A stretch of DNA of 60,228 nt, the filler included, from Basidiobolus ranarum (Eukaryota), in the NCBI GenBank assembly GCA_040143965.1. It is 4 parts of 4 records of this genome, joined end to end, with 100 filler letters (N's around TTAATTAATTAA, not from the genome) between each part and the next. Parts side by side here need not be neighbours in the genome. Positions count along the whole stretch, not along the records: positions 1 to 14,996 come from JASJQH010007275.1; 3 more parts are not named here. One strand, written 5' to 3'. The number at the start of each line of letters is the position of its first letter. Position 1 is the first letter of the stretch. Made by a program: the position numbers and the translations under genes. Of this stretch, positions 1 through 54,706 are shown in pieces. The notes under the pieces are model-generated. The model made no database searches. It saw nothing but the letters and a program-made list of their open reading frames with translations, and had not been told where the DNA came from.

Positions 1-1302
1 TCTTCCAACAGATTAGTTTCATTTTACTTGGCAACTTCAGCCTCAATAGGAATGGATGATACTACCAAGCTTCTCCCACTTTAGCTCTCCAATTGTGGTT
101 ATCCTTGTGATAATTCAATCTTAAATTATTTCGTGTTTGACAAATACCCAAAACTATTTATATACTGCAATCCATTGGTGCCAAGAAATATAGTACGACA
201 CTTTGGAGTCGAGATTCTACTTTTGTGATGGAGGGTAACATGTAAAGTTAGAATGCATAATATGTCAAGATTCAACAATATATAAAAAACTTTAGAGTGT
301 CCGAAGTATCAAGCAAAATTAGTAAATATTACTAAGCTCTAGCGACATCTTCACACCACATACATCATAAATGCGGACACCTACTACCGATAATTCGCCT
401 ACTGCTGACAATCAACCTCTTATCAATCCTACAGAGAAGCCCACCCGCAAACATATACCTACAAAAACACTACCGCATGCAGAATACATCGGTTCGTCTC
501 TATTACAACTACTCCTGGAAGCTTTAACCTCTTTTCTTTGATGGAATATGTTAGGAATGCAGATAATGTCCACTTTACGTCAAATTCGATCCGAGCATTT
601 GGGTAGGCTTCTGATTGGACTTTGTAGTATTTATGGCATCATGCACTTAATCAACAATAATTCCACATTACTGCTTCGAAAGAACACCGCACACAGCATT
701 GATACATGGGTTGTGATACAATTGAGAATCTAAAACTACATCATATCCTCATATACTGGAATTACCAAGTCTAACGCAATTAGTTGGCTGTATTCATGTG
801 TTACCATATGATAGTTTCAACCTAAATATCTAGTAAAAATTTCAATCTTAACAAATGAAATTGTACCCAAGTTGATAAATACATTTAATTGATGTAAGAC
901 CATGCTTGAGTTCCATTCCAAGAGTAGTAAGGATGCCAGGTGAATGTGAACAGTTTGAAGATTTTGTCCTCAGTCAACATTTAGCATCTTGACTCCTGTG
1001 TGCGATTTTACCATTACAAAAACTTTACCTGGATATTACTATGCGCTAGTTAAACATCAACGGAAAATGCCGCAGCCAATGCTTTACTGAAATAGTCAAG
1101 TTGAGATAGGGGATTGTTAGCCTTGTATTGGTCAATTTGTGTAAGTGTATATGTGAAGAGTAGCATGAATGACATCATAAACGTCACCTGGTGTTGCCAT
1201 TGGTTTGGATGCAGAATCAAGTGATTCGTTCACTATTCGGTACTTCTGTTATAAAAGAGGGAATTGTGAGGTTCCTAATAATTGTTACTTCGCAATCAAA
1301 AT

Positions 1303-1968
1303 ATGCTAAGGTATGTTCAACATGAAATATGACAAGGCAAAGAGAAAGGGAAAATCTAACCGTATCTTAGCAAGATGAACGTCACTGACGCACATCCCTC
1401 ACTCATTCAATCATACTCTAAACAATGCCAGACAGATGATCAACGGTGGAAGGCATTAACTAGGCGCGATCCACTAACTGATCAGGAATTTGTTTACTGT
1501 GTCAAGACAACAGGCATATATTGTCGACCGACCTGTCCATCGCGGCTAGCTAGGAGAGCAAACGTTGTTTATTATGACCACTTTTCCCAAGCTAAGCAGG
1601 CGGGTTTTAGACCATGCAAACGTTGTAAACCTGAAGTGGAAAAAGCAAAACCAAGTGTCGATATCATTGCTCAAGCTTGCCAGTCAATATTAAGCTCTGC
1701 TCGTACCCATGTACCGGTCTCAGTATTGGCTTGTGATGCAGGTCTTAGTATCACGCAGTTTCGCCGACTTTTTAAAAAACGAATGGGAATGACGCCCACT
1801 CAATATGGCCGCTCTCACCTATTTTTGTCAGATACTGCCTCCAATATTCCATCAGACCATGTCACTTCTGATCTCTACAATTTAATTACGAGTTGCTTCA
1901 CACCAGAAGAGTTACAAACATCGCTTAGCCATCCCTTGAGAATCTCTGATGTCAAATCCGTTGGCTAA
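1303..1968 (+). CDS. Ada/AdaA-like methylphosphotriester-DNA methyltransferase (Ada Zn-binding domain plus AraC-type HTH)
   Basis: Ada N-domain motifs VKTTGIYCRPTCPSR and AGFRPCKRCKP supply four Cys ligands. They are followed by LACDAGLSITQFRRLFKKRMGMTPTQY (AraC-like HTH). Short exon 1 (ATG 1303, ATGCTAAG) splices in frame via intron 1311-1370 (GTATGT..CTAAC..TAG) to the ORF at 1375. Confidence 0.88.
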
Positions 1969-4613
1969 TAATATAATATACCTACACAAATTGACCTCAA
2001 GTAATATCAATTATTGATGTTGTCCTTTCAGCTTTTATACCTACCAAAATTGACCAATCAGATAATCTAAACCTCTACTTTCCAAATTATTATCTTAGTA
2101 AACTCGAGTCTTCCAAGGTAGCTGATTCAATTGGTGATTTAGCACGCAATCGTTGAGCGTATAGATAGCACTAGAAGTAGCATGGTCCAGCCACGTGGTC
2201 TGGTTTACTATTTGGAATAACAAGTGATTCGCAGTCGTATAGATTTTCCTGTACAGTAGTTGAACATTTATTAAATACATTTTATACAGAAAGCCTCACT
2301 AAAATCTACTAGCATCAAGTTAGAGCATATTACCATCAAATGCATGGTTGGTAAATAATAGAACAATGTAGAGTAGCACCAATTTAGATCTTACTCCTTA
2401 CATGAATAAGATTGAAATAGGATAAATAGAAATATTTGCAACGAGCGAAGGGGGTAAAATATACCATTATAAATGATACTTCTCATTGAAAGCAGTTGTT
2501 AAAAGCATCGCATTTCAATTTTATAATAGTTACGTTGATTTTCAAATAACTATTAAATATTAAACAATGAAAAATTCCAATCTCAAGTCATTGTGTCTCT
2601 TCTCTGGCCTTAAAGCTATTAGTACAACCGTACTTAGCATAAGGCTACAGGCTACGTGTGAGAGGGACTTCATAAGGGCGATGCTGACAACGGTAGGCGA
2701 TAATAGTAATGGAGCTGGAGCTTATGATGCTGGAAATGATGGCGATGGTGCTGGAGATGCCAGTAATAGAGGCAATAATAGATACATATAATTATTCCCA
2801 CCACTTTAGAAAGGGCTGAAGAGCATGGAAATGGTGGGCATGACGTGATCATGGTGCCAGCAATAGTAGAGATGAAGCTGGCATTTATTCTGCTGGTAAG
2901 AGTGGAAATAGTGATGCAAGTAATAACAATGAAAGAGATAGGGATATTGAGGCCATGTCTACAATACTAGAAACGGTGAAAGTCTTGGTGTTGATGGAAA
3001 TGAAGTTAGTATCTACGCTTCGGAGCAAGGAGTTTACAGTAATTGCGAGCAGGCCTGTCATAAACATAGTTTTTGGCATAGGAGTATGGTCAAAAACACA
3101 GTCAGAATCCTTGGCGCAAGCCTGGTTATCGGTTCCACTATATTGTTGATATTGGAATGCTTATGATAGTTGAAATCTATATAGGAATGCTTGAAGAGAG
3201 GCTTGCCTCTCAATATTGTTGATCCAACACCACTCCGGAGAACTTTGAGCTGGATTAAAGTAGTCAAAGTCTCAGGGAAAATACTCCTAAACCATTGTAG
3301 CACTAAGGTAATATAAAATTAGGCCGAATTTAATATAGAATACCTACATCACTAGAAGCCCTTAGTAAGATGAACAAAAAGGCTTTTAATATTATATGTT
3401 TGCGTATGAAGGATTCATACGTTTTGAATGTCGAGATTAAACAGTTTCCGATATTGCCTAATAGAATAATACGTGGAAATCCGTCTTACAAGGTCAAGGT
3501 GAACTCATGGTTAATTGGGCAGAAGTGCTGAAACATGCTTTGTTTATTATTTTTTATTTCCTAACCTTTCAACACCTAGCTGTTTAATATACCTAAACAA
3601 ATTTAGTTAGTTTGAAGTGTTAGTAAAGCAACATTTAGTTTTATTTTGTAACATACATGTAAAATCATTTTGTCTCATCAAAGTTTTTCAATATTGAGCT
3701 TGATATTTCTGCCAACTGCTCCCAAAATGGCTCATTTTACTGCCGAATACTTTCATTTGAATTTATTCTGTATTTTTGTATGTTTCCTTGAGAGGAATAA
3801 ATTACTTATTACTAATGATTAATCAACATCTCTCTATCTCAAATCAGGCTATTCACTATGTGATAGAGACGTTCAATATGGAGTTTCAGTCGTAAAACTA
3901 ACTCGTAGAACTAGATATAGATGTATATGGGAAATGGTTAAAAGCCAGTTACATTCATATAGAAGCAGAACAGCTCATGTTTACAAACTATAAAGATCAT
4001 GCATAGCGTAGAAAATGTCTACATGCATTAAAAGAATTGGGATAATTGAGCCAAAAAGGAGGAAACAGAAGTGGTATGATAACAGAAGTGATAACCAAAC
4101 TAGTAGGATTATTCTAATATTGAACCTGAAGCACTGTCGCCTCACAAGCCCAACGTAGACAAAATTCATGGGTGGTAAAAGAATTTTCAACCAATTTTCT
4201 TGATGTTCAAGCCTAATATTCTTAACGTTAGAGAAAATTAACACCCAATTTGAGCAATATACACAAAATAGTTTAACCAGATATTTACACAACAAATTTA
4301 GATTTAACCACTAATTTAACTCCAAATCAATCCAGCATTAGTTATCCCATAGGCTGTGTACGTCTGCTTAGCCATAAATATGGTATTTAACCATATACGA
4401 GGGAGTATGCCATTTTCTCTCGAATAAAGCGCATGATGTGTGCTCAGTTAGGATATTTTAAGACATAGCTTAGCAGATCACTAATACGGAGAAACAATTT
4501 AACACACACAACTATAGTTTTTGATTAACAACAGTGCAAATTCTCAATAGTTAAAAATGTTGTCTAACTTCTAGAAAAGCAATAGTGGAGGATCCTCTCT
4601 TTTTTCACATGCT

Positions 4614-4688
4614 GGCCAATCACAGTCAAGAGAGAATTTCCAACTATACCCAGCAACCAATCAGGCCCGACAATTCAACAGCCAATGA
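4614..4688 (+). promoter_or_regulatory. Cluster of three CCAAT boxes upstream of ORF 4797
   Basis: GGCCAATCA (CCAAT at 4616), AACCAATCA (4657) and AGCCAATGA (4682) all fit the NF-Y/HAP consensus RRCCAATSR. Confidence 0.55.
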
Positions 4689-4796
4689 GCTAGCAGTAGC
4701 CAAGTAACAAAAAAAAATTAAGTGTCACTATACCAAAGCAGTCACATAGTCATTCAAACACTTGGATTTCTTTAAATACCGCTATAATATCTAATC

Positions 4797-5453
4797 ATGA
4801 CTGACTTTTGTCTACTACTGAATATGCCCAAGAATATTACTGGCCACATTGGTACCTCTTCGTTCAAAAACAATGCTTATTCATCCGATCTAACTTTGAC
4901 AGAGAAGAATACCTCAACAGAAGTGGGATGCTTTGCAAAGTTGGTTACTGACAGGACAATAATGGATCTAATTCCGCATCACCACTTTTCCATTGCTCAG
5001 CCCATGCCTAGTGATAAAGGAAAAAGTAGAGAGGTGGAATATGGCAAAAGAAACAAAGCGGAGAAAGAAACAGGAAAAAGAGATAAAGCGGAGGAAGAGA
5101 CTGGTAAAAGAGACAAAGCGGAGAAAGAAACTGGAAAAAGAGACAAAGCGGAGAAGGAAAATGGCCAAAGAGGTAACGCAGAGGAAGAAACTGGCCAAAG
5201 AGACAAAGCTGAGAAAGAAACTCGTATTCAAACATCCAATTTCAATGATTTTGATGAGGCAAGCGTAGACCATTGGGTGGTGGATTTGGAAATGCAAAAA
5301 AATACAGCCCACTCTCTCGAGGTCCTAAATCATAAGCAGCGGGCTGATGACCACAATTTATCGCATCAGTTCAAGACAGTGGCCAGTGTCGTAAAGTTAA
5401 TTTTGTGTATATTACAAATAATCCAAACACTAATCGAACTATTTCACAAGTAG
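4797..5453 (+). CDS. Orphan 218-aa protein with six 10-aa charged repeats and a hydrophobic C-terminus
   Basis: Uninterrupted ORF with repeats G[KQ]R[DNG][KN]AE[KE]E[TN] and a C-terminal VASVVKLILCILQIIQTLIELF. No family recognised. Confidence 0.5.
   Translation: MTDFCLLLNMPKNITGHIGTSSFKNNAYSSDLTLTEKNTSTEVGCFAKLVTDRTIMDLIPHHHFSIAQPMPSDKGKSREVEYGKRNKAEKETGKRDKAEEETGKRDKAEKETGKRDKAEKENGQRGNAEEETGQRDKAEKETRIQTSNFNDFDEASVDHWVVDLEMQKNTAHSLEVLNHKQRADDHNLSHQFKTVASVVKLILCILQIIQTLIELFHK
5043..5222 (+). repeat. Six 30-bp coding tandem repeats
   Basis: Units such as ggaaaaagagacaaagcggagaaagaaact start at 5043, 5073, 5103, 5133, 5163 and 5193. Confidence 0.95.
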
Positions 5454-5524
5454 CATATTGGTGTTTAGCGAAAGTTAAATTGCGATCCCTGCATTAAGAT
5501 GCCAAGCAGTTTAATACTATCCAA

Positions 5525-5596
5525 CATCTAACCCTAATATTCAACTCTATCATCTAACCCTATTATTTAACTCTATCATCTAACCCTGTCATCTAA
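5525..5596. repeat. 26-bp tandem repeat (about 2.5 copies)
   Basis: catctaaccctaatattcaactctat / catctaaccctattatttaactctat / catctaaccct. Confidence 0.85.
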
Positions 5597-5828
5597 AATG
5601 TAACGCATTCTCGATACCCTGACATAATAAATTAGTTATTATCTTACAAGCTGGTAAAAATATCGTGGAAGCTCAACTAATCGTGCAGAGTTTATATTAG
5701 AATTAAGCACCAGGGTTTAATATTAGCGCCAAGTACACATGATTAAAACCACATCGAAAGAACCCCTGAAAGATTCAGACGTATGCTGGTTGTTGCTCAA
5801 ATCTGTAGCAAGAGAAATGATTGTTATG

Positions 5829-5912
5829 CATTCCAATATCTATCGATATAACTATACATGCTATTCATTCCAATATCTATCGATATAACTATACATGCTT
5901 TTCATTCCAATA
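5829..5912. repeat. 37-bp tandem repeat (about 2.3 copies)
   Basis: cattccaatatctatcgatataactatacatgct(a/t)tt starts at 5829, 5866 and 5903. Confidence 0.9.
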
Positions 5913-7839
5913 CCTATTCAGTCCTGAAAAGCGCAAGAAGATCACATTAATGTTAGATTCCGACATGACTGCCAATCTTAATTATATTCTCCGCATCATA
6001 ACAGAAATGCTGATGGCGGGGTAAGTCCTGCAGGATCTGGAGTAATGAACTGCTTTATTTAATAAGATCTTGTGTGCAATATAGAGGGGAAAATCGTGAC
6101 TGCCAAAATACTGTTTCACATATAAATCGTGCCAATACGGGAACGTGCAAAATATCGAGGGTTCATTGGTGCTACAGTAATACTGAACTAACCATATTGG
6201 AGAGTAAATGACAATCAGAGATCTACGTTATATGGTTGTGCGCACATGCTGATCCGAGCAAGCGGTCCAACTCGGAATAATAAGTATTATTGATACAAAG
6301 TTGTTACAATTGGTTATTACATGTGACACGGCTATATTGAATCTCATACACCTCCAGAGTTCCGTACTTGATATATGGAAAAATTCAATCCGTAGTAAGT
6401 GAAATCTATAGATTTTTAATTGCGTGCTTTTTTGAAGAGCATCAACATTCAGTATCATGTAAATAATAATAAGAAGCTACTGCTACATGATGGAAAAACA
6501 TCGTAAGCCTTACTCACGTGTTCTCCACCATGCTGTAATATCAAGAGCGCAGATATATGCCATATTTCTTAATTCACAACTGATTTTTTATCCATCATAG
6601 TTCTAAGCATACTGCACATATCAATTTTGGTTGAACACACCTTGATCACACCTTGATTACACACACTTTGGTTACACACACCCAATTCTATTGATATATC
6701 CAAGTTATAATGCTATTTCAGTATCAGTAGACAACTCTTAGAATATTATAATACGACAATGACAAACTAATAGAAATATTCTTCAAACTAGCCATTGCAC
6801 ATGTTTAGTATATTTGAAGTATATTTCCTAAATATATCCGCAACTAAATTTGCTCCATTTATTTTTGTTCTATATCAAATCTATCTTTAACTGCCTGAAT
6901 ATTTTTACAACTTTCTTTACACACCAGGCATTCAACCTTATTGGCATTCCCGATCATCTTCAGTACAAGTATTAGTACTAGTTTTCAATCCAAACATACT
7001 AAATGCGTAATAACTGTTATTTCTCCATCTTGACACCTCTAATTCCTTCCGTAAGTATACCCCTAATACTGATAGGCTGAACATTTATTTTATCATTTTT
7101 ATGCAAAAATACTGTGATTCCAAATCTGTTGTATTTAGATATGTTAATAAGATCCACTTTGATAAAATTACAGAGCCCTAATACTCTCTTAAACATATAG
7201 TGAAAGTAATCAGGAAAACCCATGTCTTTATTGTAGCTGGTATCCTTCCAAATGTATGATTTGCAGTTTCTGAGCATCTCAACATTGCTTCATTATAATG
7301 ATTTTACTGTATACTTGGTAGCCTATATTTAACAAATAACTACTAGGAATTCCAGAGTCAACTTCTAACTAAATACCTCTGCTTATTTCTATGTTCAATG
7401 ACATTACTTGCTTAGATTAAATTACACATTCTCCAGCGACCATAAAAGCACCATTTCGTTGCAAGAGTGATATTGACGATTTCGATGAAAATCATGTAAA
7501 TGTGGAAGGCTTTAATCGATTAATTAGTCACTCATCAACATTCGATTTTCACAGTGACTTGCTCACTCAGTCTGTATTTCGTAATGACTATAGTCTGAAC
7601 TCTGAGTCCTAGCAAACTCCAATTGTCAGAGAGTAACAATACATGTTGGAATTTATGACAGCGGCGTAGATGAAAATAAATTGGAGTTAGTAAGTTCTCA
7701 CAGGTATTCCCTACACATTGTTACGGTATCTACACCTGGTTAAGGTAGACAGGTGATGAGGATCTTTCCCTCACTTTCATGTCATAATGTATATATTAAT
7801 TATTTCATGCCGAATGAGCTAAATGGAGATCGTCTATGA

Positions 7840-8513
7840 TAGTTCAGAGGTATCCCATCAGTAAAGGGCGGATTGCCACCAATATTCCAAGGCTCTATTG
7901 ATAAATGAAGGGTGCTTGTAATATTGGAGTCTCGTTCAGTTCTAGTACTATCACTTTGAGGTTCACTACCGTTGTCACCGCAGTTACTGTCATGCTTCCT
8001 CTCCATGGAAAAACTATAAAAACATTAATTCTTGGTTATTCAACGCTGTCACCAGTATCTAGGCCGCTCATCAATTTCGAAAGTGATACTGAGGTTACCG
8101 AAGGTTATGGTCCGTCTCACACCTATTGGTGTACGGATTCAACCGTGGATACATAGGAATTCAAACCTCACCTAAAGGGCGTCACATCTGCTTGATATTA
8201 TGGAACAAGAATGCTACTAATCTTGCTCTAAGTATTGAGCAGTACCTTGGGTCGCTAAGAGACCTATAGTCATGACACCGCCCAAACTTGTCGCGTTGTT
8301 TATAGTAGTCAATACTACCGCCAATTGGGTGACAAAATATACTTCCCTGTCGTTGCTTACACCTTCAGAGCTAACAAGTTCAAGAGTTCCTTCTATGGAA
8401 ATGATACACATAATGGCCTGTTCTTGGTCATTGATGGTGAAGGAACTAGCCTTAATTATAATCTCCCTGCTTCCCACACCAAATATCACAAAGCGTTTCC
8501 TAATCTCACCTAA
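7840..8513 (+). pseudogene. Disrupted gene for a beta-rich, possibly aerolysin/ETX-like protein
   Basis: Same-frame segments broken by stops: GACNIGVSFSSSTIT, ESDTEVTEGYGPSHTYWC, ETYSHDTAQTCRVVYSSQYYRQLG..YNLP. The family call is only a pattern impression. Confidence 0.25.
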
Positions 8514-9463
8514 TAGCGTTTAACAAAATAATGGAGCTTCAAACTCCCAAATATTTTATAACGATCTTAGTGACGGTAATCTCTTGTATTAAATCAGTAA
8601 GTTATTGCAATTGTAATGTAGATGTGAAAGTTGATGTCAGTATGAAAAAATAAACCTCCTGTATTAATGAGGTATTACTTATCATCTAGATTTTCCAATT
8701 TTTCACTTAACTCAGATAACCTTGTACTGCTATCTGGTGGAGAATTTCTTTTCGCATTCTTGGTATCGCTGTAGTTATTCACCCTCACCATAATATGTAG
8801 CTAATTCAATCTCATACTTTCTACCTAAAAGAAACCTTACTAGTCAAATCGAACCTTCGATACCATAATTTTTGACACTAAGAGAGTATACCTCTGAAGC
8901 AATAAGGATATTAATAGCTGACCAATGATCGATTCATAGGTACTATCAAGGATTATACTGCCCATTGCCTGCTATCGAAAGTTATACTGCTCATTACTAT
9001 CGGGGGTTGTACCACGAAGATGTCGTCAGAACGTAGGGTTAGGATAAGGATATGTTGAAATGGACTGAGTTTCATAAATAGCTACATTAAAAATCACAAT
9101 GACATGAGTGTTACAATGAATGAATTATTGAGGGTTATACATAGTATAAAATCTATTGATTATGGAGATCTGTTTCGTATCCTGTTCCACCCAGCTCTGA
9201 TCAATCGCGTTAGGAGTAAGCGTCTAATCAATGTGTCTAATTCCAACCTGGCAAGTGTCACCGATGAGTCAAGTTCAATGGTCTTTTTACAATGTTTGTA
9301 CTAATTAGATGAACACTACTTGTGCTGCTATACTAACTTCTAAAGTAACGCGTATGTCTACCAAGTTTTTGTATTCCATATCTTTTCCCCACTGTTTACG
9401 ACATCAACTCACTATAAAAGTAACTACTTCTTCGTCTGTCATAAGATATCTCTCACTCTGACC

Positions 9464-9706
9464 ATGAAACTCGCTATTTTCTTATCTGCTATCGCCGCCT
9501 TGTACATTACCGGAGCTGATGCCGCCTGTTATTGCCTTTCAGCCACAGGAAAAGGAACTTTCTGCGGTTTCCAGCTAACTGGTGACTCGTGCTCTAAAAA
9601 TAATCTTTAAGAGTGTAATGCCTATCGTGAACTAGCTGTAGATCTTGGAAAATGCGTTAATGGATGTCGTGGCACCTACCCCAACCAAAATGATCACTGC
9701 AAATAA
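9464..9706 (+). pseudogene. Small secreted 8-Cys peptide gene with one in-frame TAA
   Basis: Translates as MKLAIFLSAIAALYITGADA-ACYCLSATGKGTFCGFQLTGDSCSKNNL*ECNAYRELAVDLGKCVNGCRGTYPNQNDHCK*. It has a signal peptide, TATAAAAG at 9413 and a premature TAA at 9608-9610. The ORF track misses it. Confidence 0.85.
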
Positions 9707-11525
9707 AAATGTCATTAGAGGGGATACCATTAAGCAACACCAACAAGTTGTGCTCAATAAAGAGATTTCTAAATTATCGAAAGATACCCTTATAAGCTTC
9801 TTTCATAAAGAAACGCAAATTCAACATATGATGTCATCAAAGGTTATACTAAGCTGTAAACGATCCAATAATTGTATTATTTTGGCCATGCCATGAAAGG
9901 AGTCTTGTCCATTTTATTTATTAAGCCCAGTGATGTCAATAAAAAGGAAAATGGGGATCATCATCCTTTTGTAGCCAGGTCCATACTTTATGAGTATTTG
10001 ACACTAAATTTGGCACTCGAGCTAAGTCAGTTTCATTATTCAAGCAAGTGTCTACCACCGTTACCAGAAACCATGGTAACTTGAACAATGCGAATATCAA
10101 TGAGCAAGACAATTCTGGTGTAAAGTATCAGTCCGGACCTAGCTTTGAAGTTAAAGGTAGCAGTGTAAAATCTGTTCAAGGAGAAGTTTTAAGTTCCGAG
10201 CTTAATGGCGATAGAAATATTACGCCAGGAGTGTACGAAATATCACAGAAATCTGAGGGCAGAATGTAAATTTCTCCAACACTACCAGCGCATGATTCTA
10301 GTTCTGAAAAGGCTTCAAGTATCTAATTCAGAGCTCAATAATGAGTAACAATGTACAAAAAATAACTGATACAGGTTCAGATGCTATACACTTCTATCTA
10401 ACCTCGCAGTTAGCAAATACTCTTGGCCAGTCCTTACCTCAGCCAGCGTTACCTGATCAGATCTGAAGGAATTCAGCTGAAGCAGCCATGCTTTGTCCTG
10501 TTCGAATCATAGATCAAACCCAGACAATAAACTAACACTTGCACCCAATTGTATAGCTTTCAACAATTCTATGATACCTCAACTGTTTTATAATTTTTTT
10601 GTGACATTAAGAGGATTACAAGCTGTCAAAATGTGCAAATTGTCCTCGCCTTTCGTGTCGAGAATGTTGTCTTCTGGGGCGTAGTGTAAACATTGATATA
10701 TGTTTAAAGTACTCTAAACTACTCCATCAAATCGATCAACTTGGCCAGGTGGGAGGCACTATTGTGGACCTACTTCCCATTGTTCATATTACTCATATGC
10801 ATTCAAAAGCAGCCTAGCCAAATCTAAACAAAACAAAAGTTATGAGGATCTAATCTCACATAATGATTTTAAATTTTGAAGGAAGCCTCTAATACCAACC
10901 CAATAAATATATAATCAATATTCGTATTAGGGTCATTCGGGATTTTGGAATGCAATTTGTTCATCAACTGTAACCAATGAATTATTATTGCCACCTTAGT
11001 TAATCTCAAAAATTGAGTGTAAAAGCCGATCTTTTACTGAGGAAACTCATCATCGTGTACCACGCTCTAGATTCCTTATTCTCTTTCGCCCAAGACTGAA
11101 GAAGAACTTTCACATAAGACGGCTTTCTATATACTACTTTCATGACTATTGTAAACTAACCGAATATGAGTACTTATATTTCTGTCAGATAGTTCATATA
11201 CTGAATGCCATATAATGAGGATATAATATGGGATAACTAATGGAAATATGGGATAACTAATGGAAATCGTGTGTAGAAATGCTCCTGTGCGGAGATAGAA
11301 TCATGAATATCCATGTAGCAAGATCTGCATTCTCGATTTGTCAGCATTCTCGGATGATCTCATTCCGCCACTCATTTACCAATTCTTACCGGAATTAATA
11401 ATTATTAAATTATCCGCAGCAAATATTGGGCTATTGAGGTTCAAATGGTGTGATTACGTGCTGGCTTCGCGCATGTATATAACACCCTAGAAGGTTTCTA
11501 GGGAGATCAACAACAATTCTACACA

Positions 11526-13065
11526 ATGTCGTCATCCGCTACAGTATTGCCTCGTCGTACGATTGGTGAAGACCTAGTATCTGCTTTAGGTTATGGAGCA
11601 ATGGTAAAGGAAGTAAGGTTTATAACGAAGTGAGCTCTGATCTAACTGGTATCTACGATTGCAGGGAATTGGAGGAATCGCATATGGCTCTGCTGGCTCC
11701 GATGAAGAACGTTTCCAGGTAAAGATTCAACCTCAACACGTACTTCTTGTCATAGAATAATTCTTTCGACTCTGGATAGTTTCTTGATACACTCTTTGAA
11801 TCCGGTTGTACTAATTGGGATACGGCTGATATATACGTAAGTGGAGGAGTTTTATATCTGGATTCAACCAAGAACTAAGTGATATCATTTTGTTATAGGG
11901 AGATAGTGAGGAACTAATTGGAAAGTGGTTCAAACGTACAGGAAACCGCAGCAAGACTTTCCTTGCCACCAAGTTTGGTATCACTCCTGCTGGCATCAAT
12001 GGCAAGCCTGAATAGTAAGTCTTTTGTAATGGCTAATATGGAAATGATTCCTTAAAGAAAGCTAATGTGATTGAAGTGTGCACTCAGCCATAGAAAAATC
12101 ATTGAAGCGCCTAGGGGTAGATCAAGTAGATCTATACTACTTGCATCGAGTAGATAGTACTATTCCTATTGAGGAGACTGTAAAGGCTATGGCTGAATTA
12201 GTGAAGTATGTCATCATTCTTCTTTACAATATTGAAGCTTACCTTAATCTGACAAATGTATCACTAGAGAGGGGAAGGTAAAGTACTTGGGACTGTCTGA
12301 GCCATCCTCCCAGACACTTCGACGTGCCCATAAAGTTCACCCCATCAGTGCTATTCAAGTGGAGGTTAGCTCGTATAGTTTTCATGCTTAATAGAGCTGC
12401 TTGAACGACTAACTATATTGATTCTATCTGCAGTATTCTCCATTTGCTCTCGACATCGAGGAAAAGGGACATCTTCTTGATACCGCCCGTGAACTCGGAA
12501 TTGCAGTGGTAGCATACTCTCCATTAGGTCGTGGCCTTCTCACTGGCCAAATTGTAAGTACTGAATAGTGTAGTAGGTGTTGTTAACACAGTCAAAAGCT
12601 CACCATTCTTACTTCAATATGTGATAGAAATCATTTGATGATTTTGAAGATGACGACTTTCGTAAAACCGTTCCAAAGTTCTCCCGAGATAACTTCCCCA
12701 AAATAATTAAACTCGTCAACGAATTGCAAGAGATTGGGAAGAAACATAAAGCTACCTCTAGCCAAGTTACATTGGCTTGGCTTTTAGCTCAAGGTGACGA
12801 TATTATACCTATTCCTGGGTGAGTTCATTTTTTGCATCGATTGTTACGGTATCATTCAAATTTGTAATTAATCATTTACCTAAACAGTACCAAGAAAGAA
12901 AAATATTTGTCGGAGAATCTGGACTCACTTAAAATAACCCTTTCACCAGAGGAGCTGGCCACCATCCACAAATTGGCTCAAGCAGCAGATTCGGATATTT
13001 TGGGTGCTCGGTACTCTTCCGAGTTTAATAAGTATCTGTATTTAGATACTCCTGAATTGAAGTAA
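11526..13065 (+). CDS. Aldo-keto reductase (AKR13/YakC-like), 9 exons
   Basis: Spliced translation gives [69 protein letters not shown] and IPIPGT. The catalytic D/Y/K/H residues are present and eight GT-AG introns keep the frame. Confidence 0.95.
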
Positions 13066-13369
13066 GGATAATCTTGGTGTAACCTTTGCGGTTATTGCTA
13101 TTAACAGTGTATATTTCTCTTACTACTCCCATTAAATAAACCATCTGTTGAACTTTATTATCTCCGTAATTATATATGCTATAACTGATGACTGTTATAC
13201 TTTTTGCAAACATAATTTTAATGTCAGCATCTCAGCAGTCACAATATAATTTAGCTTTACACTTAGCACAGAGTGTAATTGGAGCCCAGATAAATCGACC
13301 CAAAATATGGTGATTCCACTACTCTTTATGATGCTACTTTCATATGTATTAGTATTTTTTTTGTACTTT

Positions 13370-14000
13370 GATAAATTTATGGATACTGCTTTAAACTATA
13401 AATCTATCTTAATGAATCATGGAGTCTTTGATATAACTACTGGCAACATGAGAAAAGGTTAGCCAGTTGATCATATTACTTTGTCTACCAATGTCTCTCC
13501 TAGCTCTGACTATCATCAGCAGTTAAAATTTATTCTAAAAGAGATCATTTCAAGTGCGGATATTTACAGATGTATCATGAGATTCATTGGATTATTATTT
13601 ATTCCAGGTAATACAGATACATTATTTATGGTGTTTATTGGTTCAAGTTACAACGGCAAAAGTCATTGCATGAAGTTAATTGATTAAGCATTAGGTGAAA
13701 ACTTATTGATACATGTACTATTATAGGCAAACACACTGCCCCAGAGGCTGCTACTCCTGATATAACATTGATTGAATGTAAGTTGGTAGCTTTGCTTCAA
13801 GAACCTTCTAATAATCAGTATATCAATATCATCATAGTTAAGGAGCTAGCTGGCAATGAAAACATATATAGTATAGGTCTGTATAAAGCATGCAGAGATA
13901 CTTCTATGTTTACCAAGTTAATATATGAAGTTCATTTTTTGGAAAATCATGCTATGATAGAAAGGAAATCTGGAATTGTATTTGTCATGTGACCCAAATA
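13370..14000 (+). pseudogene. Degenerate D5-family primase/helicase (SF3 NTPase) of large-DNA-virus/Polinton type
   Basis: Collinear motifs: D5_N-like MNHGVFDITTGNMRKG*PVDHITLST, Walker A VFIGSSYNGKS, ATPDI..KLVALLQEP (Walker B region), VKELAGNENIYSIGLY and KEIWNCI. It has stops and frameshifts and no introns. Confidence 0.8.
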
Positions 14001-14704
14001 TATTAATGAGAGAAGATGTAACTTGAATCTGCCTGAAAGATATCACATTTTTACACTATAATTACAAGGACCAATGATCAACCAAGCTTGTGTATATGCA
14101 TAGGAGGGATTATTCAATAGTTTCACTATTAAATTTAATACCTCAAGTATCAAGCAAAAGAATAAACTGTAGCCAATTACATTTTATCCAAAATGTTCTC
14201 TGCCAAGTATCCCAACCTTTTAAATTTTATAAAGACATTCAAGCTAAATGGCTTATCCTACCTCCAAAGATGTTTGGACCAAGTTATTAACTAAGTACCA
14301 GCTTTTAAGTTTTAAAATACTTCCAACAATTATTCCTGCATCAGATCCTCCAGCCTTCTCTGCCTGTAATGACTCAAAAGTGGTGGTCTTGTATCTGCTT
14401 CACCATTCTCCTTTGAAGCCTTACACTCCTTGGCCTCTAATCTTGCTTATAAACTCATGTGAACCCAGCAAGTATCAGTATGTTGAAATTAGCTTTGCCT
14501 AAGCACCTATATAGTCATATATAGCTTAGTACTCAGTCATCTTATAATTCACCAAGATATTATCCATTATTCTCAATCGGAATTTACTTAGAAGTTCTCA
14601 CATATATAGATTTTTCAAACTTGTGCTAGAAGCCCCAAACTTCGCACATATGTTCCTGGGACCTTCCTCAACACATTCTACACGTTTGTTTGTTTCCATC
14701 TTGA

Positions 14705-14808
14705 CAAAAATATAAATATCAACTTTCTACTCAATATATCAATAAGTGAAAACCACCAATTCCCCAATTCTCCAAACCACTTCCAACATGCTCACAAATA
14801 CTTTAACA
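14705..14808 (+). mobile_element. Dispersed repeat, probable LTR 3' end
   Basis: About 105 nt are nearly identical to 45271-45375. The segment contains TATAAA and AATAA, and similarity stops sharply at ...CTTTAACA (LTR-type CA terminus). Confidence 0.65.
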
Positions 14809-14996
14809 CAGTACACTTATTAACCCTGCCTTTACATACGTTCCCTGCCATTGAAAGATAAGTACATGTAGTACAGTTAGCTATCATCTTAGACATAGTA
14901 GACCCAAATTTGATCTTATTAGTCTGATAATATCAGTATCAGTGATGAATATCTTAGAGTTGCTCTGCTGATAAGATATTGTACAAATTGACTATT

Positions 14997-15096
14997 NNNN
15001 NNNNNNNNNNNNNNNNNNNNNNNNNNNNNNNNNNNNNNNNTTAATTAATTAANNNNNNNNNNNNNNNNNNNNNNNNNNNNNNNNNNNNNNNNNNNN
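14997..15096. other. Artificial contig linker
   Basis: N44-TTAATTAATTAA-N44, giving stops in all six frames. Confidence 0.98.
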
Positions 15097-30088: not shown

Positions 30089-30188
30089 NNNNNNNNNNNN
30101 NNNNNNNNNNNNNNNNNNNNNNNNNNNNNNNNTTAATTAATTAANNNNNNNNNNNNNNNNNNNNNNNNNNNNNNNNNNNNNNNNNNNN
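30089..30188. other. Artificial contig linker
   Basis: N44-TTAATTAATTAA-N44. Confidence 0.98.
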
Positions 30189-45170: not shown

Positions 45171-45270
45171 NNNNNNNNNNNNNNNNNNNNNNNNNNNNNN
45201 NNNNNNNNNNNNNNTTAATTAATTAANNNNNNNNNNNNNNNNNNNNNNNNNNNNNNNNNNNNNNNNNNNN
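45171..45270. other. Artificial contig linker
   Basis: N44-TTAATTAATTAA-N44. Confidence 0.98.
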
Positions 45271-53590: not shown

Positions 53591-54706
53591 ATGACCCCCG
53601 CTCCTCAGAATTCCGATGATGCCGTTTCTCAGACTAGCGAGCAGATATCGGACGTCAAAGTCACGACAAAAAGCACTGAGGTAAAAGTAACTCCCAACAA
53701 AGAAGTAAGTCTCAACGACTCAGTTAATGTGGACGAGGAGCCACTGCTAAAACCCAACCCGAGACGATTCGTGCTATTTCCAATAAAATACCATGATGTC
53801 TGGCAAATGTACAAGAAAGCTGAAGCGTCTATTTGGACTGCCGAAGAAGTTGACCTCTCCAAAGACATGAATGATTGGGCAAAGTTGAATGATGGTGAAC
53901 GTCATTTCATATCGCACGTACTTGCATTCTTCGCAGCATCAGACGGTATTGTAAATGAGAACCTGGTTGAAAGATTCAGTGACGAAGTTCAGATTCCTGA
54001 GGCTCGCTTCTTCTACGGGTTCCAAGTGATGATTGAGAATATCCATTCGGAGATGTATTCCCTGCTTATTGACACGTACATTCGCGACACACAGGAACGA
54101 AACAAATTGTTCAATGCCATCGACACCATTCCATGCATTAAAAAGAAGGCAGATTGGGCGCTCCGATGGATCTCCGATCGTGAATCCACATTTGCTATTC
54201 GTTTAGTGGCTTTTGCCGCGGTAGAAGGAATATTTTTCTCTGGGTCCTTCGCGTCCATTTTCTGGCTGAAAAAGCGAGGTCTCATGCCTGGTCTCACGTT
54301 TTCGAATGAGTTGATTTCGCGTGACGAGGGTCTTCATACAGACTTTGCATGCTTGCTTTTCTCCTTGCTGCGCAAAAAGCCTAGCGCAGACACCGTCACC
54401 TCCATTATTACCGAGGCAGTTAAGATTGAGCAGGAGTTTCTTACCGATGCCTTGCCTGTTGACCTCATCGGTATGAATGCTAAACTCATGGCCCAGTACA
54501 TAGAGTTTGTCGCAGACAGGCTATTGGTGGCGTTGGGATGTCCAAAGTTCTACAAAGTGGAGAATCCATTTGATTTCATGGATCTGATCTCTCTGCAAGG
54601 CAAAACCAACTTTTTCGAAAAAAGAGTCTCTGATTACCAAAAATCAGGGGTCATGAGCTCGCAAACGCCCAATGATGGTGCATTCACTTTGGACGCCGAC
54701 TTCTAA
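53591..54706 (+). CDS. RNR2: Ribonucleotide reductase small (R2) subunit
   Basis: Motifs [50 protein letters not shown] and C-terminal FTLDADF. Confidence 0.99.

Follow-up and report, generated by a model that had tools for sequence, protein, structure and literature searches.

Background

Two groups of fungal elements are close enough to the locus described here to serve as references. The VLEs, zymocin-type cytoplasmic linear plasmids, have terminal inverted repeats (TIRs), and the genes of their non-autonomous plasmids are preceded, ~30 nt upstream, by the motif ATNTGA (UCS); in the tables of the same source a helicase of 586 aa is followed by an SSB of 161 aa and then by an RNA polymerase, and an ORF of 463 aa is entered as unknown (PMC8472843). 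In yeasts, the nuclear integration of VLE fragments and their decay to pseudogenes have been described as common (10.1101/2023.07.20.549855, PMC11848437). A recent survey describes VLEs from Cunninghamella, Umbelopsis, Podila, and Coemansia (Heneghan et al. 2026, PMC13348850). The main text of that article mentions neither an SF3 nor a D5 helicase, and Basidiobolus is not mentioned, so that no VLE is reported there for this genus.

The other reference group is the endogenous 'fundsalphaviruses', NCLDV-like elements of fungi (Gong, Zhang and Han 2020, PMC7017919). They were found through a Pithovirus-like PolB and carry several linked core genes, a D5 helicase-primase being among the six genes common to them; stops and frameshifts are present, and the hosts include Basidiobolus meristosporus, B. 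heterosporus, and Cunninghamella elegans. A first-pass annotation of the DNA studied here had spoken of a lineage with few described DNA viruses, but the lineage is not unexplored, endogenous NCLDV-like elements, D5 included, having been published for two Basidiobolus species (PMC7017919).

A decayed D5-like helicase gene in Basidiobolus ranarum

The window, by which we mean the whole stretch of 60,228 nucleotides of Basidiobolus ranarum DNA that was analysed, consists of four ~15-kb pieces joined by N44-TTAATTAATTAA-N44 linkers at 14997-15096, 30089-30188, and 45171-45270. The helicase remnant lies in the first of them (1-14996), ~750 bp from its end, and the sequence past 14996 is not contiguous with it.

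An exhaustive phmmer search with the first part of the remnant as query, its TAG stop read as X, returned 48 proteins at E<=1e-3, and a single one below 1e-10, the 456-aa protein P0001 of a metagenome contig. P0001 is collinear with the remnant over its residues 129-245 and 252-411 (joint E 4e-43). With P0001, then P0067, as queries, the rest of a protein family was collected, and P0067 (446 aa) proved to be by far the closest relative of the remnant, with 69%, 51%, and 45% identity over three segments; P0067, P0068, and P0069, encoded on contigs of 1952, 1624, and 6559 bp, rank as its three nearest relatives. When the proteins were compared with the window by tblastn, 42 of the 48 phmmer proteins matched, always inside 13292-14163, and a set of 100 proteins gave no match outside 13000-14400.

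An HMM built from the 27 family proteins (445 positions) matched the six-frame translation twice (iE 1.7e-37 and 2.5e-36), placing the remnant among the D5_N/SF3 helicase cores. A fortuitous match, or an artefact of translating AT-rich non-coding DNA, might be suspected, since Pfam applied to the remnant alone gave D5_N below threshold (E 0.005; 17.6 bits, where 22.4 are required) and a word-based search, run first with the 97-aa second part against longer proteins only, gave no match. However, this reading is exceedingly improbable in view of the collinearity of the two HMM matches and of the 69% identity to P0067 across 117 residues; the P0067 alignment and the family HMM matches refute it.

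The remnant occupies 13355-14246 on the plus strand and covers profile positions 116-424 of 445. Segment A (13355-13699, plus strand; profile 116-230) carries the 69% identity, to residues 117-233 of P0067, and runs from the end of the D5_N-like domain to the Walker A loop (GSSYNGKS), with in-frame stops at 13460 (TAG) and 13685 (TAA). The junction at 13700-13707 (plus strand) is a first frameshift, the two sides lying in frames 0 and 2 relative to 13250 and in separate HSPs, and five profile positions are absent there. Segment B (13708-14169, plus strand; profile 236-398) is 51% identical to residues 240-399 of P0067 and comprises the Walker B-like LLQEP, KELAGNENIY..GLY, the motif C region, and the C-terminal helical region, interrupted by stops at 13990 (TGA), 14059 (TAA), and 14101 (TAG). 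Segment C (14154-14246, plus strand), in the third frame, matches profile positions 394-424 only weakly by itself (iE 0.15) and contains one stop (14163, TAA); it is probably the 3' end of the remnant, and tblastn aligned it with residues 393-425 of P0067 at 45% identity. The three frames jointly spell a D5-like helicase in collinear order and with no intron. The first-pass annotation had proposed just such a remnant, and the HMM and tblastn results bear it out while making it somewhat larger.

Upstream, the family HMM found no match to profile positions 1-115. The plus-strand interval 13157-13354, where the HMM is silent, was covered by long tblastn HSPs of 29-31% identity that reach back to 13157-13166 for only four family proteins (P0053, P0058, P0060, and P0063) and the ORF of locus L004 (see below); this putative extension may possibly belong to the remnant, but is unproven. 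The 5' part is in any case truncated or eroded: the start of an intact gene would fall within an exon of the neighboring aldo-keto reductase gene, and the remnant is therefore 5'-truncated.

In total, the remnant has six in-frame stops, a gap of nine codons, and at least two frameshifts, one at 13699/13708 and one at ~14154-14169, which agrees with the earlier description of a gene disabled by stops. Every motif named in that description has a counterpart in the family consensus: GSSYNGKS corresponds to SGTGDNGKS, ATPD...LLQEP to ATPE...FLQEP, and KELAGNENIY..GLY to KELTGNDSIYVRGLY. The IWN motif was recognized correctly as to its counterpart, AVWNRI, but it stands in a frame different from the rest; it is the trace that persists of a W..R...PF.T block deleted by the nine-codon gap near 13963-13990.

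Several residues expected in an active enzyme have also been lost. The Walker A loop keeps NGKS but lacks one invariant Gly, and the invariant Asn of motif C (profile position 311) is replaced by His. Among the 60 residues invariant in 29 intact members, 36 are kept and 24 lost in the remnant, whereas the intact members themselves, in a leave-one-out comparison, keep at least 90% (median 100%). The whole divergence from P0067 falls on the branch of the remnant (0.59 vs 0.0 substitutions per site), a pattern that reads as the neutral decay of a P0067-like gene. The remnant thus fails on the features of a working enzyme (intact Walker A, Walker B, and motif C, and an open frame) and, judging by its sequence, is a non-functional nuclear pseudogene.

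Surroundings of the remnant

An intron-bearing aldo-keto reductase gene (11500-13065, plus strand) ends 290 nt before the remnant begins. Pfam matched two of its exons to Aldo_ket_red (E 1.5e-12 and 3.3e-07); its exon-like ORFs are split by short AT-rich spacers, and its stop codon is at 13063-13065. Because this flanking gene bears introns, the remnant sits in nuclear fungal DNA. On the other side, 14247-14996 contains no recognizable gene, repeat, or element terminus.

When 13067-14996 and 2000-11499 were scanned with Pfam in six frames, reading through stops, no other family reached E<=0.01, and there was no reverse transcriptase, integrase, capsid, or polymerase. The remnant had been described as lying beside retroelement debris; no retroelement family was found in these scans, which very eroded debris could slip past. 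When 2968 ORFs from 154 related loci were compared with the window by tblastn, only the helicase region and the host RNR2 gene were matched. The ORFs other than the helicase of L004 and L005, the two family loci found in metagenomes, had no match in the window, the downstream flank included. Searches for flanking repeats, a target-site duplication, or an inverted repeat around the remnant yielded only 14-24-nt matches at chance level. No second element-derived gene or terminal repeat was found beside it, and hence no other VLE-derived sequence or TIR that would mark a VLE integrant.

Other features of the window were recorded in passing. At 1360-1965 (plus strand), a bacterial-type Ada metal-binding domain is joined to an HTH of the AraC type (Pfam E 3e-31 and 1.2e-07), which in fungal surroundings makes this gene a candidate horizontally acquired regulator or methyltransferase-like gene. 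The ~9.5 kb at 2000-11499, without a Pfam match at E<=0.01 in six frames, hold several minisatellites, one of which, a 30-nt unit repeated six times at 5042-5222, encodes a K/E-rich repeat. [quoted passage not shown] The RNR2 protein encoded at 53591-54703 falls, at the 90% identity level, into one cluster with the RNR small chain of Basidiobolus meristosporus CBS 931.73, and the Atlas neighbors of an alcohol oxidase encoded in the window are fungal; we accordingly regard the host as Basidiobolus-like.

A helicase-only family

The 27 family proteins are 367-475 aa long (~445 aa) and 45-100% identical to P0001. They match PF19263 and PF08706, and their D5_N-like sequence begins at around residue 60. 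Neither an AEP nor a PriCT domain was found in the Pfam scan of P0001 or among the precomputed domains of the other members, so that the N-terminal AEP and the PriCT of a bifunctional primase-helicase are both missing. Since proteins of ~445 residues leave no room for an AEP primase domain, the family is helicase-only, and the word 'primase' in the name first given to the remnant has to be dropped.

Named members come from Umbelopsis isabellina (a 569-kb contig), Cunninghamella echinulata (69 kb), and Umbelopsis sp. (contigs of ~23 kb), the first two contigs being probably nuclear; many other members are on contigs of 6.3-7.5 kb.

A profile search of the PDB with the family matched ASFV C962R (E 4e-20) and the poxvirus D5/E5 proteins (~2e-4), with no further match at E<=0.001. 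Like ASFV C962R, vaccinia D5, and mpox E5, the family has a D5_N-type domain followed by an SF3 ATPase core, and it shares with them G-x-G-x-NGKS, a QEP Walker B-like motif, and a KEL.G.D..Y.R.LY block. Unlike them, its members, at ~445 aa, are without AEP primase or PriCT, and the copy in the window is a truncated pseudogene. In the AlphaFold model of the family, the mean confidence is limited (pLDDT 70.8) and falls below 50 across much of residues 217-363, the ATPase core. A fold search with this model returned the SaPI5 primase-helicase and, with TMq ~0.5-0.6, the ASFV PrimPol and mpox E5, the identity to solved proteins being 14-19%; because the core is modeled with low confidence, the search may be taken to back a D5-like overall architecture only.

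The P4-type phage and plasmid primase-helicases and those of SaPIs have the same D5_N plus SF3 architecture and a similar fold (SaPI5 ranked fifth in the fold search). They differ in sequence, the best 12 of 884 phage records being only 24-28% identical (E 8e-22 at best), and the context of the remnant is eukaryotic.

Phylogenetic placement

In trees of 115 and 195 sequences alike, P0067 is the sister of the remnant (support 1.0), and both belong to a clade (support 1.0) made of the 27 family proteins, two locus-derived proteins, and the remnant. In both trees, this clade nests among GVMAG and NCLDV-context sequences, and the remnant groups with giant-virus rather than phage homologs. The trees were computed with FastTree (SH-like supports) with a root assumed on three phage proteins and included no cellular or Polinton-like sequences; P4-type phage sequences served solely as the rooting outgroup. 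The primase-bearing relatives P0007, P0008, P0012, and L007 lie outside the family clade, and the remnant, within the helicase-only clade, is apart both from them and from the Linderina/L084 clade.

The contigs of the outgroups carry further genes. Among the IMG/VR relatives, 45 of 68 are on giant-virus MAG contigs. On L084, the closest of these contigs (41% identity), PolB and RPB1 occur together with a FEN1-like gene and one for a capping enzyme. The immediate sister clade includes L015, which has UDG, RNR2, and a FEN1-like gene, and whose helicase is short (570 aa) with no detectable primase domain. Besides a full AEP-PriCT-D5_N protein, L007 has an Rpb3/11-like gene and one for a poly(A) polymerase regulatory subunit. 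The Atlas neighbors of P0001 bear mixed phage and giant-virus labels, mostly Uroviricota, and do not discriminate between origins.

As a separate observation, the RNR small subunit of L015 (2-889, minus strand) is 67% identical to the host RNR2 (window 53735-54616), and it shares its contig with the helicase closest to the fungal family.

These placements suggest that the helicase family descends from the D5/C962R helicases of Nucleocytoviricota. The remnant is not a core fungal gene, as the first-pass annotation had it, and the idea of a dead gene of viral ancestry in fungal nuclear DNA is upheld by the PDB profiles, the trees, the lesions, and the aldo-keto reductase flank together.

Plasmid-like contigs among the relatives

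The metagenome scan gave two family loci, L004 and L005, from which the genetic context of the family was read; each is just 39% identical to the remnant. L004 is a whole metagenome contig of 6465 bp with 32.5% GC and perfect terminal inverted repeats of 99 bp. Among its products are a 479-aa DUF5483 protein, a 600-aa SF2 helicase, a 175-aa DUF5482 protein, and the SF3 helicase; it has in addition an ORF of 133 aa. ATNTGA stands at -25 to -34 before five of its six ORFs that are 120 aa or longer, among them the SF3 helicase, against a background of 5-6.5% of positions.

On L005 the helicase is followed by a KilA-N gene, a small Cys-rich ORF, and the gene for a compact Rpb2-like polymerase, and none of three ORFs has a proximal ATNTGA. 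The Cys-rich ORF (1747-1974, minus strand; 75 aa), which adjoins the helicase and the KilA-N gene, has an N-terminus that appears hydrophobic by eye, and an ATTTGA box precedes it by 24 nt; it is reminiscent of the small secreted proteins that have been reported from VLEs of Mucoromycota.

No protein-primed DNA polymerase was seen on L004 or L005. IMG/VR scans with the DUF5483 protein and the SF2 helicase of L004 found no relatives, and phmmer comparison of the L004 and L005 proteins with the ORFs of 83 loci gave only two distant SF2-helicase matches and one KilA-N match. DUF5482 and DUF5483 may be the families of pGKL2 ORF5 and ORF9, respectively; the lengths of the models (159 and 471 positions) and the gene order fit this assignment, and our literature search found no paper on DUF5482, DUF5483, PF17579, or PF17581.

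The small TIR- and UCS-bearing contigs of the family thus seem to resemble zymocin-type plasmids. L004 shares with VLEs an AT-rich sequence, TIRs, the ATNTGA motif ~30 nt upstream of genes, and a gene order in which an SF2 helicase is followed by an ORF of SSB-like size (175 aa), and family members occur in Umbelopsis and Cunninghamella, two of the genera with reported VLEs (PMC13348850). It differs from them in having no DNA polymerase, and the remnant in having no flanking TIR or second VLE gene; moreover, an SF3/D5-like helicase is absent from the nine VLE housekeeping genes that have been described (PMC13348850). L004, at 39% identity to the remnant, may be a polymerase-less 'satellite' of VLE-type plasmids.

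Origin of the remnant

On balance, the data favor a donor from early-diverging fungi, either a cytoplasmic linear plasmid of the VLE type or a giant-virus derivative without a capsid, and a small linear plasmid-like element of such fungi is the most likely source. We lean, with limited confidence, towards a donor that was a VLE-type plasmid rather than a virion-forming giant virus. The parent gene would have encoded a D5-like SF3 replicative helicase of the fungus-associated, helicase-only family of giant-virus descent, carried by a small AT-rich linear element with terminal inverted repeats and ATNTGA promoter boxes, similar to the killer and helper plasmids of the zymocin type. A fragment of this element would have been captured in a chromosome of the Basidiobolus lineage, just downstream of the aldo-keto reductase gene, in the manner known for VLE fragments of yeasts, which enter nuclear DNA and degenerate into pseudogenes, and would then have drifted neutrally, leaving a sequence that has no present function. 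The homology, the decay, the family, the context of the relatives, and the host lineage are observed; from there we infer the type of donor, the mechanism of capture, and the age of the insertion.

The strongest competitor, somewhat less probable but to be taken seriously, is that the remnant is the last recognizable piece of an integrated giant virus proper, an endogenous element of the fundsalphavirus type. Such elements, with their D5 gene, are published for two Basidiobolus species (PMC7017919) and, like the remnant, show an NCLDV-type D5 that premature stops and frameshifts have broken up within the nuclear genome of an early-diverging fungus. The nesting of the family within giant-virus D5 diversity fits this reading, as do its nearest outgroups, which are NCLDV-like and include, in L015, a short 570-aa helicase without detectable primase. 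The probably nuclear contigs of U. isabellina and C. echinulata (569 and 69 kb) count against a VLE donor, and so does the fact that the main text of PMC13348850 reports no VLE for Basidiobolus. However, no other NCLDV gene was found in the 15-kb piece: linked core genes (PolB, RNAP subunits, D6/D11 helicase, capsid) were missing from the six-frame Pfam scans of 2000-11499 and 13067-14996 and from the tblastn results, so that a lone helicase fragment stands against the several linked core genes of fundsalphaviruses. The remnant also belongs to the helicase-only clade and not with the primase-bearing relatives or the Linderina/L084 clade, and the family loci with readable context look like small TIR/UCS plasmids.

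Polintons and Polinton-like elements are able to carry D5-like helicases, and the sister-clade proteins P0050, P0084, and P0010 are on contigs of 15-28 kb. A remnant of a Polinton, a Polinton-like virus, or a virophage-type element with an SF3 helicase is nevertheless improbable: no pPolB, integrase, capsid, or packaging ATPase was found by Pfam in 2000-11499 and 13067-14996 or by tblastn of the 2968 ORFs, the outgroup contexts L084, L015, and L007 are all giant-virus-like (in trees without labeled Polinton-like helicases), and giant-virus MAG contigs account for most of the IMG/VR relatives. Of the viral or Polinton-like integration first proposed, the viral-type ancestry stands, but no Polinton-like signature was found, the tblastn comparison of these ORFs having shown no pPolB, integrase, capsid, or A32 in the window. 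Acquisition from bacteria, phages, or plasmids (a P4-type primase-helicase), or bacterial contamination, has in its favor that several relatives carry the source label 'phage/plasmid-associated DNA primase', that the Atlas neighbors of P0001 are mostly labeled Uroviricota, and that the SaPI5 enzyme is among the top fold matches. We regard it as slightly less probable still, as the identities of 24-28% (the best of 884 records) compare with 41% for giant-virus contigs and with 69% and 51% for P0067, the PDB profile matches at E<=0.001 are confined to ASFV and poxviruses, and the remnant is decayed and lies 290 nt from an intron-bearing eukaryotic gene.

Implications

Taken alone, the remnant is one more viral-type pseudogene and changes little, as relics of this kind were published for Basidiobolus in 2020 (PMC7017919). 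What is less ordinary is that a helicase-only D5 family is located on plasmid-like contigs with the TIRs and UCS of VLEs. If these contigs are true VLE plasmids, VLEs outside the Dikarya would encode a second replication protein, of giant-virus type, that is absent from the main text of the VLE survey (PMC13348850), and nuclear fossils would map past hosts of such plasmids, here in a lineage for which no VLE has been reported.

We tentatively suggest, as a reading that could well prove wrong, that VLE-type plasmids of early-diverging fungi, ~6.5-kb polymerase-less TIR satellites included, carry a D5-type replicative helicase module, of which the remnant would be the first trace in the Basidiobolus lineage. 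Were this so, the giant-virus-derived part of the VLE gene set would gain a replication gene, and the host range of these plasmids would widen.
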